From UHGV virus genome UHGV-0236108: 31,992 nt of DNA; one strand, written 5' to 3'. Each line of letters opens with the position of its first letter. Within the stretch, counting starts at the first letter, position 1. A program made the translations under genes and the position numbers. This document shows positions 1-14,489 of this stretch, piece after piece. The notes beneath the pieces are model-generated. The model was not told where the DNA came from, ran no database searches, and saw only the letters and a list, made by a program, of their open reading frames with translations. The DNA is from a virus.

Positions 1-84
1 CTGATGTCCGGCGGTGCTTTTGCCGTTACGCACCACCCCGTCAGTAGCTGAACAGGAGGGACAGCTGATAGAAACAGAAGCCAC
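1..84 (-). CDS. insA: IS1 InsA, N-terminal 28 codons (partial, runs off window)
   Basis: Minus-strand GTG at 84-82 followed by codons for [28 protein letters not shown], the known InsA N-terminus with its CxxC zinc-finger start. Confidence 0.8.
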
Positions 85-139
85 TGGAGCACCTCAAAAA
101 CACCATCATACACTAAATCAGTAAGTTGGCAGCATCACC
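1..139 (-). mobile_element. IS1 insertion sequence, terminal 139 bp (element continues left of window)
   Basis: Reverse complement of 1-139 reads GGTGATGCTGCCAACTTACTGATTTAGTGTATGATGG...GTGGCTTCTGTTTCTATCAGCTGTCCCTCC, which I recognise as the IS1 terminal inverted repeat plus insA start region; element terminus at 139. Confidence 0.85.
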
Positions 140-975
140 GCAAATGCCATTAATACTTCTAAAGTATATCTTCTATAAAATTTAACAAAACCAACATAGA
201 AAACATAGACGAAGAAAAAGCTAAGCATTATTGAAAGTAAACTATAAAGATAATCACTATGAGTACATAATCGATAAATAAAGGTTGGAACTGATACCCA
301 AAATGAAATTATAAAGATTAAACATATGTTTCTGCAAAAACCATATAATGCAACATAGTTTTGAATTTTTGTTTGATGTTGTTTTGAAAACTCATAAACA
401 TAATGATATGCCAATCTGAAGAGATCATCATCAAGTCCGTTTTTATCTTGTAATAATTGGCGATTTGTTATGAACTTTTTCTCATAACCTTCTTTGATCA
501 TTAACCATGTTGTATTAGCTAAATGAAATGGTAGAGATTGAGAATAACATAGTTTTTGTGTTATAAAATCCCATAGTATTATTGGACATAATACGCATTT
601 GATTATGCGATTCTTTATTTTTGTTTTTTTATCAGCGCTTCTCTCATCGCAGGATGGGCTACAAATGCTTTCTGAGGTATCTATCAATTTTTTAAATAGA
701 TATTTGGAAGGATATCCTAATTCTTTATTCATGTATTTTTCGATAAAAAATGCTGACGTGATAGAAATAAAATGTCCAGCTATATAAGATATAATAACTA
801 TTGAAGCGTAGTTCAAAATGCCAAAGATTTGACTTTGACCTCTGAGCAATTCACTTAAGTCAATAACAATATCTAGATCGAATGTCAAACCACAGAAATA
901 CATTAATAGGATAAAAAAACCACCTGGTATTAAATATCCAAGAAAGTCATAGAATGAGAATGGATTTTGATTCAT
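118..975 (-). CDS. AT-rich polytopic membrane protein, 3' end truncated by IS1 (last ~6 codons and stop supplied by the IS1 inverted repeat)
   Basis: ORF-track 118..999; ATG at 975 has a GGAG 7 nt upstream, the TTG at 999 does not. Hydrophobic segments at both ends (FFILLMYFCGL, IVIISYIAGHFISITSAFFI, CLIFIISFWVSV, LLSIMLSFFFVYVFYVGFV). Very low GC versus neighbours. Reading frame crosses the IS1 terminus at 139. Confidence 0.55.
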   Translation of the reverse strand: MNQNPFSFYDFLGYLIPGGFFILLMYFCGLTFDLDIVIDLSELLRGQSQIFGILNYASIVIISYIAGHFISITSAFFIEKYMNKELGYPSKYLFKKLIDTSESICSPSCDERSADKKTKIKNRIIKCVLCPIILWDFITQKLCYSQSLPFHLANTTWLMIKEGYEKKFITNRQLLQDKNGLDDDLFRLAYHYVYEFSKQHQTKIQNYVALYGFCRNICLIFIISFWVSVPTFIYRLCTHSDYLYSLLSIMLSFFFVYVFYVGFVKFYRRYTLEVLMAFAVMLPTY

Positions 976-1083
976 TGTTGCTCTCCAATAATTTTTCAAT
1001 TTGTAATATAACCTATATCTATATGTTAATAAATTACTTATATGTTCTTTTATGGCAGAGTTTGAATTCGTACGTGCTGATTT

Positions 1084-1608
1084 TTACGACTCAGTTAACT
1101 CTTTAAAGCGTTCCATAAACATCCCATAGGTATGGCCTGGCGACAGTGGAATAACTTTGAACATCTCTGTTGCCGGGATACCTTCCAGTACGGGCCAGAA
1201 AGAGCCATCATCAAGCCCGAGATCGCGGCGTTCGGTTGCCAGCATGATGAGATCGGCATATTTCACGGGCGTACTCATAACCGGGGGTAACCCGTATTTC
1301 TCACGGATTACGGCGTCTATTTTTTCTTCCATCCGTTTATAGTCAGGAAGAAGGCGTTTCAGTGGCGCCGGGATGTCCTGGCAATACGCTTCTGTTGCAT
1401 CATGCATTAACGCTTCAAAAGCAAATTCCTGCGGTACCAGTTGGCTGCAAAGCACCGCATGTTGGGCGACGCTGTAGAAATGTGAAAGATGTCCTGCAAA
1501 GCGACAGATATTTGAAAGAGAAACCGCGATATCGTTAATAACGATGTCGTCTTTATTTATCCTGTCATAATAAAAATGCTTCCCGGAAAAAGTTTTAATA
1601 AATGACAT
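1084..1608 (-). CDS. yfdR: HD-domain phosphohydrolase (YfbR-like 5'-nucleotidase fold), CPS-53 YfdR-like
   Basis: H...HD...D metal-binding pattern (GHLSHFYSVAQHAV ... ALMHDATEAY ... D); start placed at ATG 1608 with GTGGAG Shine-Dalgarno (ORF-track GTG at 1635 has none); symbol from remembered similarity and gene order, unverified. Confidence 0.65.
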   Translation of the reverse strand: MSFIKTFSGKHFYYDRINKDDIVINDIAVSLSNICRFAGHLSHFYSVAQHAVLCSQLVPQEFAFEALMHDATEAYCQDIPAPLKRLLPDYKRMEEKIDAVIREKYGLPPVMSTPVKYADLIMLATERRDLGLDDGSFWPVLEGIPATEMFKVIPLSPGHTYGMFMERFKELTES

Positions 1609-2625: not shown

Positions 2626-2988
2626 TTAATGACCTGCTGCGCGGAGTTTTCCGTCAGGTTCACCGGCAAGAGTCAGTAATTGTCCCTGGTCTTCCTGCAG
2701 AATAGTCAGGCGACCACCGCGATTGACATACATCGGCGTTTCGGTGGTGTCTTCTTCGGAAATTTTCCCGCGGTTAGTCGGACGAACATATGAGAGTTTG
2801 TGTTTTATTTTCACACGGTTCTCATCAAACGGTTCGATTTCCAGGTTGAGCGAAACCTTACCTTTGGTTTTCGTGTTCATCACACCGGAAGCGACTTCAC
2901 TGAGAACTGCGCCGATTTTGGTTTCAAATACGCCGCCGTCCAGCTCCCCGATAAATTCCTGCACGTTGGTACTGCGTTCGCTAGCCAT
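2626..2988 (-). CDS. yfdP: small prophage protein, CPS-53 YfdP-like (120 aa)
   Basis: Internal ATG at 2988 preceded by GAGGAG; the longer ORF-track extension to 3306 is Arg/Cys-rich and runs into structured noncoding DNA, so judged not translated. Confidence 0.55.
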   Translation of the reverse strand: MASERSTNVQEFIGELDGGVFETKIGAVLSEVASGVMNTKTKGKVSLNLEIEPFDENRVKIKHKLSYVRPTNRGKISEEDTTETPMYVNRGGRLTILQEDQGQLLTLAGEPDGKLRAAGH

Positions 2989-3425
2989 TTTGCTGCTCCT
3001 CATCATATCGACCCTGCAAGGTCGGTTGGTTTCTCCACAAAACAGAGAAGAACACCTGCGGTGGCAGTCGCCCCGGTGGATTGGGTTATGAGCCCGTCGT
3101 CCGGTGATGCTCTTCTCTGTTTTGTAAAAAGAGCGGTACCAGCCGGAAGCAAGGGTACAAGCTGGTACCGCCAGGACTACACACAGCATAAAGTTGTGGT
3201 GCCGGGTGCCTCCCGGTGCCTGGCGAAGGTTGCACACCAGGCGGGTGGGTATCCACAGAAGGTCGACTGTCAGCCTCAACCTTAACCCGCGTGCGCTGAG
3301 CCGCATTCACCACAACGCTAAGGATTCTCTCAGGTTGAAAATACTTAGCTGTTATGTGCCTGTCTTTTCACCACTTCAGGCTCGGTGGTATCCTTTTAAG
3401 CCCGTATACATAAAAGGAAAATCAA

Positions 3426-6100: not shown

Positions 6101-7042
6101 ATGAGCACTAAATTAACCGGCTATGTATGGGATGGTTGCGCAGCGTCAGGCATGAAATTATCCAGCGTGGCAATTATGGCCCGCCTGGCTGATTTCAGTA
6201 ATGACGAAGGTGTGTGCTGGCCATCAATTGAAACCATTGCCCGTCAGATTGGCGCGGGGATGAGTACCGTCAGGACGGCTATCGCACGGCTGGAAGCAGA
6301 AGGCTGGTTAACGCGTAAGGCGCGTCGCCAGGGTAACCGCAATGCGTCGAATGTTTATCAGCTTAACGTTGCGAAGCTTCAGGCAGCGGCATTTTCTCAA
6401 CTGTCAGATTCTGACCCGTCAAAATCTGACGCATCAAAATCTGACCCGTCAAAATTTGATGCGTCGAAATCTGGCAAAAAAGCGGGTTTTCACCCGTCAG
6501 AATCTGGCGGGGATCCGTCAGTAAAATCAAAACATGATCCGTCATATAAAAAACCTTCTCGTCCGGACGCTTCGCAACCGGACACGCAGACGGATGAACA
6601 GGATTTTTTAACTCGCCATCCTGATGCGGTTGTATTCAGCCCTAAAAAGCGCCAGTGGGGAACGCAGGATGATTTGACCTGCGCACAGTGGCTCTGGAAA
6701 AAAATCATCGCCCTGTACGAGCAGGCCGCCGAATGTGACGGCGAGGTGGTTCGTCCCAAAGAACCGAACTGGACAGCCTGGGCAAACGAAATTCGCCTGA
6801 TGTGTGTGCAGGATGGTCGTACTCACAAACAAATCTGCGAGATGTACAGCCGCGTCAGCCGCGATCCGTTCTGGTGCCGTAACGTGCTCAGCCCGTCGAA
6901 GCTGCGGGAAAAATGGGATGAGCTTTCCCTGCGCTTATCGCCGTCCGTCAGCACGTACACAGAAAAACGCGAAGACCCGTACTTCAAAGCCAGTTACGAC
7001 AATGTGGACTACAGCCAGATCCCGGCAGGATTCAGGGGGTGA
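6101..7042 (+). CDS. replication initiation protein, lambda O-like (N-terminal winged-helix DNA-binding domain, iterons inside the gene)
   Basis: N-terminus with HTH-like segment (ETIARQIGAGMSTVRTAIARLEAEGWL); codons 100-150 are the in-frame read-out of the iteron array (SDSDPSKSDASKSDPSKFDASKSG). Confidence 0.75.
   Translation: MSTKLTGYVWDGCAASGMKLSSVAIMARLADFSNDEGVCWPSIETIARQIGAGMSTVRTAIARLEAEGWLTRKARRQGNRNASNVYQLNVAKLQAAAFSQLSDSDPSKSDASKSDPSKFDASKSGKKAGFHPSESGGDPSVKSKHDPSYKKPSRPDASQPDTQTDEQDFLTRHPDAVVFSPKKRQWGTQDDLTCAQWLWKKIIALYEQAAECDGEVVRPKEPNWTAWANEIRLMCVQDGRTHKQICEMYSRVSRDPFWCRNVLSPSKLREKWDELSLRLSPSVSTYTEKREDPYFKASYDNVDYSQIPAGFRG
6403..6555. repeat. origin-of-replication-like element: five tandem 15-bp iterons (6403-6477), degenerate copies, then an AT-rich stretch
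   Basis: GTCAGATTCTGACCC / GTCAAAATCTGACGC / ATCAAAATCTGACCC / GTCAAAATTTGATGC / GTCGAAATCTGGCAA head to tail, then CCGTCAGAATCTGGCGG and an A/T-rich tract (aaaatcaaaacatgatccgtcatataaaaaacc). Confidence 0.65.
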
Positions 7043-13492: not shown

Positions 13493-13518
13493 TCTGGACA
13501 AAGAACAGGAATATATTT

Positions 13519-13869
13519 ATGCCTCCTCGAACCCCAAAAGCCTGCCGCGTTCGCGGCTGCCCCCATACCACCACTGACCCGTCAGGCTATTGCGAAAGGC
13601 ACAAAAGCGAAGGCTGGAAGCAATACAAGCCAGGCCAGTCCCGTCATCAGCGCGGTTATGGTTCGAAGTGGGACAGTATCCGCGCGCGCGTCCTGAAGCG
13701 TGACAAAGGTTTATGTCAGTTATGTCTGCGTGCCGGTGTGGTGCGTGAAGCTAAAACCGTTGACCACATCATCCCTAAAGCGCATGGCGGCACTGATGCC
13801 GACTGTAATCTGCAGAGTCTGTGCTGGCCGTGTCATAAGGCGAAGACGGCCCGTGAACGACTTAAGTGA
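13519..13869 (+). CDS. HNH endonuclease associated with the packaging module
   Basis: CxxC ... DHIIPKAHGGTDADCNLQSLCWPCH ... canonical HNH motif; sits immediately upstream of terminase small subunit. Confidence 0.85.
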   Translation: MPPRTPKACRVRGCPHTTTDPSGYCERHKSEGWKQYKPGQSRHQRGYGSKWDSIRARVLKRDKGLCQLCLRAGVVREAKTVDHIIPKAHGGTDADCNLQSLCWPCHKAKTARERLK

Positions 13870-13879
13870 TAATAATTCT

Positions 13880-13950
13880 CAACTGTCTGAGGGGAGGGGC
13901 GAGTCAAATCTCTGTGACCTGACGTCTTCCGGACTGCCCGCCCCATCGTT
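13880..13950. other. candidate cos / packaging-recognition region
   Basis: G-rich imperfect dyad (GGGGCGAGTC ... GACTGCCCGCCCC) between the HNH and terminase genes, the usual cos position in HNH-plus-terminase phages; unverified. Confidence 0.25.
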
Positions 13951-13994
13951 TTTTTATACCCGCGAAAAATGAAATTTAACCAGGAGTGCCGCAT

Positions 13995-14489
13995 ATGGCT
14001 GGAACGGCGGGGCGTTCCGGGCGTCGCCCCAAGCCAACGGCGCGCAAGGCGCTGGCCGGAAACCCCGGCAAGCGAGCCCTGAATAAAGATGAACCTGTTT
14101 TTACGCCCATCAAAGGTGTTGAGCCACCGGAGTGGTTCGCTGAAGAAGATCTCCCTCTCGCTACGATCATGTGGCAACTGACAACTAAAGAACTCTGCGG
14201 TCAGGGCCTGCTGTGCGTGACTGACCTCGCGGTGCTTGAGCGGTGGTGCGTGGCCTACGAGTTCTGGCGACGTGCCGTGAAAAATATTGCCAGACAGGGC
14301 AACACCATCACCGGTGCAATGGGCGGTATGGTCAAAAATCCGGAGCTGACCGCCAAAAAAGAACAGGAGTCCGAGATGAGCAGTACGGGGGCAATGCTCG
14401 GACTCGACCCCAGCAGCCGCCAACGTCTGATTGGCCTGGCGGGGAAGAAGAAAGCCACTAACCCGTTTCTGAAAATCATCGAATCATGA
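13995..14489 (+). CDS. terminase small subunit (P27-family type)
   Basis: [28 protein letters not shown]-terminus typical of P27-family small terminases; CAGGAG before ATG 13995 (ORF-track GTG 13986). Confidence 0.85.

Follow-up and report, generated by a model that had tools for sequence, protein, structure and literature searches.

An AT-rich accessory gene of temperate phages encodes a predicted four-helix membrane protein remotely related to Csx27

The virus genome UHGV-0236108, a DNA stretch of 31,992 nucleotides (nt) referred to here as the window, carries near its first end an AT-rich gene on the minus strand (118..975) that lies downstream of a yfdR-like gene and runs at its 3' end into an IS1 element. 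The gene is a horizontally mobile, single-gene AT-rich cassette without a conserved partner, and it is accessory-hotspot cargo, occupying a variable slot between conserved phage genes where sister phages hold alternative cargo. Its product is predicted to be an inner-membrane protein and, judging from profile similarity, belongs as a remote relative to the Csx27-like superfamily of proteins with four transmembrane (TM) helices. We infer that it may act as a stand-alone membrane effector of inter-element conflict, in superinfection exclusion or abortive infection, under control from the cytoplasmic face of the membrane, a role that we hold to be quite possible while falling short of probable.

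Protein family and similarity to Csx27

The original prediction, made from the sequence of the window, recognised no family for this protein. That view is superseded by an end-to-end match to PHROG 12528, whose function is not assigned (E = 2.2e-170, residues 1–281 against positions 1–281 of the 288-position profile), and by a remote similarity to Csx27. A database search returned 593 homologues, every one of them named 'hypothetical', and an exhaustive profile search recovered 945 clusters (50% identity) at E ≤ 1e-3, including 208 at E ≤ 1e-30, the members of which are nearly all 260–320 amino acids (aa) long and aligned over their full length. No domain fusions were found in the long family members, whose extra length comes solely from insertions in loops or TM segments and from low-complexity tails. 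Species-representative carriers belong to the Gammaproteobacteria, Bacteroidota, Chloroflexota, Acidobacteriota, Gemmatimonadota, Firmicutes, Spirochaetota, Verrucomicrobiota and Acholeplasmataceae, and the family is also found widely on chromosomes, away from any recognisable phage. Prophage carriers are common in Escherichia coli, Salmonella, Klebsiella and Enterobacter, and the gene occurs in 205 of 5,426 complete E. coli genomes, in 176 of them at ≥99% identity. The family is very large, uncharacterised and horizontally mobile, and the gene has a functional-looking form.

An alignment of 136 diverse family members served for the profile matches, the conservation analysis and the deep AlphaFold model. 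At E ≤ 10, the window protein matched only two PADLOC models, Csx27 and tm_4, both of which represent VI-B CRISPR-Cas-associated membrane proteins. The Csx27 match (E = 1.2e-5 to 6.9e-7) extends over residues 6–268 of the protein and positions 4–188 of the 206-position profile. Within the family, 97 of the 136 members match PADLOC Csx27 (best 2.2e-10) and 31 match tm_4, while CAS_Csx27 was the sole recurrent match among the 18,950 models of NCBIfam (26 of 136 members, best 2e-6). None of ten shuffled versions of the protein, four shuffled globally and six within topological segments so that hydropathy was kept, matched PADLOC at E ≤ 10, which argues that the similarity to Csx27 is sequence-specific and not compositional.

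Csx27 proper was considered as an identity and rejected. Against NF040557 the window protein scores 16.2 bits (E = 0.008) through N-terminal residues 5–43 only, far from the equivalog cut-off of 65 bits, and it is accompanied by neither cas13b nor a CRISPR array. The window contains no CRISPR-like repeat array, cas13b, tRNA or Rfam element, and Cas13b was not among the recurrent neighbours of 80 family loci. CRISPR-associated membrane proteins are nonetheless the only detectable relatives of the protein, which matched no Pfam family at E ≤ 1. In keeping with the accessory role originally proposed, homology to a transporter or housekeeping membrane protein was found in none of Pfam, NCBIfam, the PDB sequences and the PDB folds. 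A relationship to SieB or RexB, which had also been considered, was not borne out, PADLOC giving only the two models above and Pfam nothing.

Two further observations concern the reach of the family. Five to six of the 136 members weakly match the 'PDC-M48A' phage-defence-candidate models of PADLOC (E ~1e-3); some other branch of the superfamily thus seems to have been singled out before as a candidate on account of its association with defence islands. A 99.3%-identical copy of the gene is located at 13509–14372 of NZ_CP148393.1, a 44.6-kb non-mobilizable E. coli 'plasmid' record that could represent a phage-plasmid, an excised prophage or a mis-binned prophage.

Accessory slots in lambdoid and P2-like phages

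In the prophages of UTI89 and 13C1079T, the gene stands in the order yfdR, the present gene, xis and int, the xis-like gene encoding 68 aa. Three enterobacterial prophage lineages, whose integrases, attachment sites and upstream genes differ, invariably carry it immediately ahead of xis/int, in the same orientation as the early-left operon. They are the UTI89-type prophages, those carrying a 78%-identical variant near zur/dinF, and Enterobacter prophages by pgsA/uvrC. The gene is found in the same slot in Klebsiella phage P7641. The contents of the slot between yfdR and xis vary, comprising yfdS/yfdT in K-12 and VE-T10, remnants of a methyltransferase and an exonuclease in F3398, and the present gene in CB6837; yfdR itself is found in 2,971 genomes, and the gene follows it in just 205. 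Since the slot carries unrelated cargo in sister prophages, the gene is dispensable. In IMG/VR, relatives are encoded on 77 viral contigs; 32 of 72 run out no more than 2.5 kb downstream of the gene, and five of 72 do so upstream.

A second slot is occupied in P2-like phages: 289 of the 5,426 E. coli genomes carry a 42%-identical homologue of 280 aa, WP_000193205, with the portal gene gpQ on one side and the replication gene gpA on the other. Together with the 205 genomes of the lambdoid type, this amounts to approximately 9% of complete E. coli genomes. The gpA–gpQ interval, which in P2 houses old and tin, is an experimentally validated hotspot of anti-phage systems, and a homologue of the WP_000193205 type is listed at least 161 times in the hotspot table of the same study (Rousset et al., 2022, PMC9122126). 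The presence of a homologue in this hotspot lends circumstantial support to the idea of superinfection exclusion or abortive infection that had been put forward for the window gene.

In P2-like E. coli prophages (loci L087 and L088, 3464–4843), a DUF4760 gene encoding 165 aa with an N-terminal TM helix precedes the homologue in the same orientation, with 40 bp between them, and this two-gene unit is present in 289 genomes; in phage vB_EcoM-705R2, the homologue is intact and the DUF4760 gene is unannotated. A literature search on DUF4760 and on the protein accessions found nothing relevant. The 78%-identical E. coli variant (loci L089–L092, 8450–9438) is situated in an integrase-less prophage remnant near zur/dinF/lexA, where it adjoins a small hypothetical gene and a gene with a SocA_Panacea domain, an antitoxin domain of the toxin-antitoxin type. 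The latter two genes may form another defence-like module.

Mobility and neighbours across species

The composition of the gene sets it apart from its surroundings. In the window, the GC content is 28.3% in 140..975 and 52.5% in the remaining sequence. Across 77 loci of other species, the flanks exceed the family gene in GC content in 75, by a median of 9.1 percentage points and by as many as 28 points in Pseudomonas (Wilcoxon p = 4e-14), and GC at third codon positions (GC3) is likewise lower in the gene, by 9.1 points. The AT trough is confined to the gene, the genes immediately before and after it deviating by just 2–3 points. The compositional trough, limited to the gene here and elsewhere, and the swappable yfdR–xis slot both uphold the original description of an AT-rich, horizontally acquired accessory gene downstream of a yfdR-like gene.

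The neighbourhood of the family is diverse. All-versus-all clustering of the 957 open reading frames (ORFs) located within 6 kb on either side revealed no neighbour cluster in more than four of 80 loci, and the 148 immediate neighbours represent 145 different Pfam families, the most frequent being phage integrase (four cases). Restriction-modification subunits, ResIII, AbiEii-type ATPases, mad3/mad5 and glycosyltransferases appear two to three times each among these neighbours, and methyltransferase, type I specificity and mad3/mad5 genes are present at two loci each. The upstream neighbour is co-directional in approximately 92% of loci. AT-rich co-cargo was seen at a few loci only and is heterogeneous. 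An obligatory partner gene was rejected, as none recurred after the ORF clustering and the Pfam and PADLOC scans of the 148 neighbours. Four distant representatives, all on 3-kb metagenomic contigs, added nothing on genomic context.

A few loci have noteworthy neighbours of their own. In a Pseudomonas metagenome-assembled genome (MAG), the gene directly downstream of the family member (L050, 8343–8810) is equally AT-rich (−18 points) and was therefore probably co-acquired; it gives a sub-threshold match to the Pfam 8xMP 'octameric membrane protein family' (27.3 bits, cut-off 30), and the pair could represent a cassette of two membrane proteins. Three MAGs of Deltaproteobacteria/Smithellaceae (L035, L042 and L063) are the only loci that share tight co-directional neighbours, of 226 aa upstream and 290 aa downstream, and the reported 'DNA modification' branch of the Csx27 family may have its counterpart here. 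The mad3/mad5 genes at two loci are PADLOC matches to methylation-associated defence.

Predicted topology and conserved residues

Hydropathy analysis indicated four TM segments, all encoded on the minus strand, at approximately residues 10–31 (TM1, 883..948), 52–76 (TM2, 748..822), 216–237 (TM3, 265..330) and 243–266 (TM4, 178..249), and the pLDDT-90.7 model described below shows long helices that match them. Loops 31–51 and 238–242 are acidic or neutral, and region 77–215 and the C-terminal KFYRRY are rich in Lys and Arg, a distribution that under the positive-inside rule indicates that both termini are cytoplasmic. With the 136-sequence alignment, AlphaFold (AF2) produced an all-helical model with a predicted local distance difference test (pLDDT) score of 90.7 and a predicted template-modelling (pTM) score of 0.89, in which the cytoplasmic helix 198–215 runs straight into TM3; a shallow alignment gave a mediocre model (pLDDT 69). 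In the predicted fold, the TM1–2 and TM3–4 hairpins flank a cytoplasmic helical core of approximately 140 residues (77–215; 331..747). Hydropathy, charge distribution and model agree in this respect with the polytopic inner-membrane protein with a cytoplasmic core envisaged in the original prediction.

Structural comparison of the pLDDT-90.7 model by Foldseek gave no match in the PDB (best E = 0.78, TM-score ≤ 0.27) or in BFVD (best E = 0.89), and neither this model nor the pLDDT-69 model found anything below E = 0.3 in the two databases. A search of PDB sequences with the family profile (hmmsearch) returned only a chance match to ITPR2 (E = 0.12). Stators of the MotA/PomA/ExbB type (ZorA-like) were a recurrent theme in the Foldseek results at chance level only (E ≥ 0.9, probability ≤ 0.16, TM-score ≤ 0.23), and they were rejected because of TM-scores of approximately 0.2; a MotB/ZorB-like partner gene is also lacking. 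Given a confident model with no PDB or BFVD match, an experimental structure would probably define a new membrane fold.

Residues were regarded as conserved at ≥80% conservation in the 136-sequence alignment. These are N4–G18 (NPFSxYDFLGYxIPG), a near-invariant cytoplasmic motif that precedes TM1; the invariant Y64 and G67 and near-invariant H68 and S74 at the inner leaflet in TM2; E79, Y88-P89-S90, P131, D184–E195 (DLFRLAYHYxYE) and H200–R215 (HQxKIQNYVALYGFxR) in the cytoplasmic core, the last of these reading HQxKIQNYVALYGFCRN over residues 200–216 and continuing into TM3; and F263–M276 (FxKFYRRxxLExxM), part of the conserved cytoplasmic C-terminal helix FxKFYRRYTLExLMA (140..177), which is intact despite IS1. 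Every one of these positions faces the cytoplasm or lies in the inner leaflet, and conservation is lowest in the two periplasmic loops (mean identity 15% and 11%). The concentration of invariant residues in one cytoplasmic and inner-leaflet patch, together with freely varying periplasmic loops, suggests that the cytoplasmic side is where the protein acts or is controlled. The Cys-containing domain singled out in the original prediction does not share in this pattern, and was rejected as a meaningful feature: CSPSCDE (103–109) is a disordered loop of the core with a pLDDT below 50; the 277-aa orthologues lack it, and it shows no conservation.

Reading frame and IS1 junction

The ORF begins with ATG at 975..973 and, as it stands, comprises 285 codons (118..975), with its stop codon at 120..118 inside IS1. 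The ORF listing offered an upstream TTG at 999 as an alternative start; every homologue begins with MNQNPF, which identifies ATG 975 as the true start. As originally noted, the gene has its own Shine-Dalgarno sequence, GGAGAG (981..986), located 5 nt before the ATG. The ratio of non-synonymous to synonymous substitutions (dN/dS) between the UTI89 allele and the 78%-identical E. coli orthologue is 0.23 at a dS of 0.60, which indicates that the gene is under purifying selection. This ratio, the full-length match to PHROG 12528 and the 593 homologues argue that the frame is real and did not arise by chance.

Positions 1..139 (minus strand) are 100% identical to an end of IS1 (IS1B), consisting of the inverted repeat and the start of insA, and in the alignment with the UTI89 prophage the homology starts exactly at base 140, placing the breakpoint at 139/140. 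The IS1 segment displaces the last eight codons of the gene and whatever lay beyond, which in intact prophages is xis/int. It is oriented with insA co-directional with the membrane-protein gene, and any sequence past the gene falls outside the window. The frame extends 22 nt into IS1, which adds MLPTY before the stop. The native part (140..975; codons 1–278 plus 2 nt) is 99.9–100% identical to the intact alleles of UTI89 and 13C1079T, with a single synonymous difference from the UTI89 allele. Comparison with these intact alleles, which encode 288 aa (WP_001075212.1, annotated 'hypothetical protein'), shows that the 285-aa window product retains native residues 1–280, followed by MLPTY, and that IS1 costs it only the last eight residues.

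The window copy is thus near-complete despite the clipping, and this bears on whether it could be a dead remnant, inactivated by IS1 and by the presumed loss of xis/int beyond. IS1 has replaced the 3' end and supplies the stop codon; the 285-aa fusion product was found on one public contig, compared with at least 1000 for the 288-aa intact allele, and the junction was found in none of the 5,426 complete E. coli genomes. All three observations would fit an inactivated copy. Against it, the residues lost belong to the least conserved part of the protein, since the tail past residue 280 shows ≤19% identity and an occupancy down to 60% in the 136-sequence alignment. M276 is the last family-conserved position, so that a copy with native residues 1–280 retains every conserved residue. 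The frame has no lesion other than the IS1 junction, and the sequence upstream, including the ribosome-binding site, does not differ from that of intact alleles. Loss of function in this particular copy is therefore conceivable, and we consider it doubtful.

Proposed function and alternative explanations

The gene is an accessory ('moron') of a lambdoid prophage, and its product is predicted to span the inner membrane with its two termini on the cytoplasmic side. The cassette lands in the cargo slots of temperate phages: before xis/int in lambdoid phages and in the tin/old hotspot in P2-like phages. The cytoplasmic patch of the proposed effector could bind a phage or host protein, a nucleic acid or a small ligand, and the protein would then interfere with the passage of nucleic acid across the inner membrane or perturb membrane integrity. 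The exclusion or defence role is suggested by a dispensable mobile cassette under purifying selection, a conserved surface facing the cytoplasm, two cargo slots, one of them a validated defence hotspot, and relatives associated with CRISPR. In a bolder form of the proposal, the solo phage-borne branch of approximately 280 residues would by itself form a one-gene module of immunity or exclusion, have a new membrane fold, and be gated via the cytoplasmic patch, acting on incoming nucleic acid or membrane integrity, and Csx27 would be a pared-down derivative of such an effector, recruited by Cas13b; we offer this extension as a speculation that we rather doubt. Action as a surface receptor mask is unlikely.

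Several points weigh against an effector of exclusion or defence. The gene is close to, and co-directional with, the early-left operon and xis, and a simple scan of the sequence detected no convincing promoter or terminator of its own, so that it may be expressed mainly on induction and not in the lysogen. The conserved His/Glu/Asp/Lys/Arg patch could equally indicate an enzyme, and many family members of other phyla are adjoined by ordinary metabolic or polysaccharide genes. In the P2 hotspot, the arrangement containing the homologue was catalogued and falls outside the systems that were tested (Rousset et al., 2022, PMC9122126). Csx27 was reported to repress, not enhance, Cas13b immunity, including across loci, and its red fluorescent protein (RFP) fusions were not membrane-localised in E. 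coli (Smargon et al., bioRxiv 10.1101/092577). A literature search found no experimental report on any member of the family.

The repression of Cas13b by Csx27, the sole experimental datum in the superfamily, would fit a counter-defence or immune-dampening role, in which the protein down-regulates a nuclease or abortive-infection effector of the host or of a co-resident element at the membrane and so spares the phage or lysogen at induction. A position in, or co-directional with, the early-left operon without a clear promoter fits the lytic-stage expression that such a role implies, and the conserved cytoplasmic patch could serve as a protein-binding surface. However, Cas13b is absent from E. 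coli, and the family lacks a conserved partner gene next to it; the P2 gpA–gpQ interval is described as a hotspot of defence, not of anti-defence; and the spread of the family on chromosomes outside recognisable phages is also difficult to reconcile with this role, which we regard as unlikely.

The same genomic position could instead reflect a function in the life cycle of the phage, an early membrane protein that aids the phage's own development by anchoring replication or recombination complexes or by modulating host physiology on induction, with no conflict between phages involved. The gene is the last of the early-left operon, beside yfdP, yfdQ and yfdR, in several prophage lineages, and the frequent co-direction with the upstream neighbour across the family points the same way. 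Such a function is improbable in view of its presence in 205 genomes compared with 2,971 for yfdR and of the unrelated cargo in sister prophages, which mark it as dispensable, and of its occurrence in the unrelated P2 hotspot and at many non-phage chromosomal loci; its composition is also foreign to the phage backbone.

An envelope-modifying enzyme of lysogenic conversion, with an Asp/His/Glu/Lys/Arg active site at the inner leaflet that modifies a lipid or lipid-linked glycan and alters the surface or the membrane, would account for the invariant polar cluster at the membrane–cytoplasm interface (D10, H68, E79, H191, H200, K203, N206, R215, K265 and E273). A few family members adjoin glycosyltransferases, epimerases or WecG-type genes, and O-antigen modification genes such as gtrABC and oac sit in integrase-adjacent slots of enterobacterial phages. 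This explanation is very improbable, given that the protein resembles no known enzyme family or fold, that glycosyltransferases account for only about three of the 148 neighbours, and that its nearest profile relatives are CRISPR-associated membrane proteins and not enzymes.

If the exclusion or defence role holds, the gene would represent a single-gene membrane module common in prophages of E. coli, Salmonella, Klebsiella and Enterobacter, with relatives across many phyla, and would provide a tractable E. coli model for Csx27. The family could also be added as a candidate to defence-annotation tools, as PADLOC now assigns a stray 'Csx27' label and Pfam offers no coverage. The gene is a good and cheap candidate for a defence screen more than a surprise in itself.

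Other features of the window

Upstream of the gene, an AT-rich spacer of 108 bp (976..1083, minus strand) separates it from the stop codon of the yfdR-like gene and contains a weak promoter-like site, TTTATT-17-TATATT (1033..1005, minus strand), which agrees with the consensus at eight of 12 positions and is at most a candidate promoter. The yfdR-like gene directly upstream (1084..1608, minus strand) encodes a putative HD-domain 5'-deoxynucleotidase, with weak Pfam matches to YfbR-like and HD families. It belongs to the early-left operon yfdP-yfdQ-yfdR, and yfdQ (DUF2303) is the next gene beyond it.

Farther into the operon, a 226-aa ORF (2626–3306, minus strand) consists of the C-terminal 120 aa of yfdP joined to a GC-rich upstream stretch (53–58% GC), for which the UTI89 and 13C1079T annotations give a hypothetical gene of its own with a frameshift. 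The N-terminal part of this ORF, at the local GC peak, looks non-coding. At 6410–6473, a 15-bp unit (TCTGACCCGTCAAAA) is repeated 4.3 times within the ORF at 6101–7042, the UTI89 equivalent of which is a helix-turn-helix (HTH) gene of the replication type, and these repeats resemble the origin iterons of a prophage replication module.

Comparison with known systems

Like the present protein, RexB of lambda, SieB of P22 and Imm of T4 are small polytopic inner-membrane proteins encoded by dispensable accessory genes of phages or prophages, and RexB is a four-TM protein. They share no similarity with it that Pfam or PADLOC could detect and occupy different positions in their phage genomes. RexB, moreover, requires RexA, whereas the present gene has no conserved partner. 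Compared with the cargo of the P2 tin/old hotspot, where a full-length homologue resides, the window copy lies instead in a lambdoid prophage.

To our knowledge, Csx27 is the least understood accessory protein of type VI CRISPR systems, its mechanism being unknown eight years after its discovery. Csx27 (PADLOC PDLC01605, NCBIfam NF040557; type VI-B1) is likewise a predicted four-helix membrane protein, and it too is encoded by an AT-rich accessory gene tied to conflicts between mobile elements. The likeness extends over both TM hairpins and is strongest in the N-terminal motif and TM1. The present protein is approximately 80 residues longer, through a larger cytoplasmic core, and its gene stands alone on temperate phages of Enterobacteria, whereas Csx27 is found in CRISPR loci of Bacteroidota. 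The one known activity of Csx27, repression of Cas13b, has no obvious target in E. coli.

Makarova, Gao, Zhang and Koonin reportedly placed Csx27 in 2019 in an expansive four-TM family with a broad phyletic spread outside CRISPR loci, members of which are said to form operons with DprA/ComF-type, ubiquitin-system multidomain, WYL-HTH and DNA-modification genes. The present subfamily of approximately 280 aa has the four predicted TM helices and the relation to the Csx27 profile in common with that family, but none of these operon partners recurs beside it in the 80 loci and 148 neighbours. Earlier, Csx27 had not been found outside VI-B loci (Smargon et al., bioRxiv 10.1101/092577), and a search for open-access papers on Csx27-like proteins of prophages found none.

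Csx28 (type VI-B2) serves the same CRISPR subtype as an accessory protein in the membrane, where it forms an octameric pore, and was shown to depolarise the membrane after activation of Cas13b. It is unrelated in sequence to the present protein, which has no PADLOC match to it and lacks the divergent HEPN motif of Csx28. As a mechanism, Csx28 nevertheless provides a precedent for membrane effectors that are gated from the cytoplasm.

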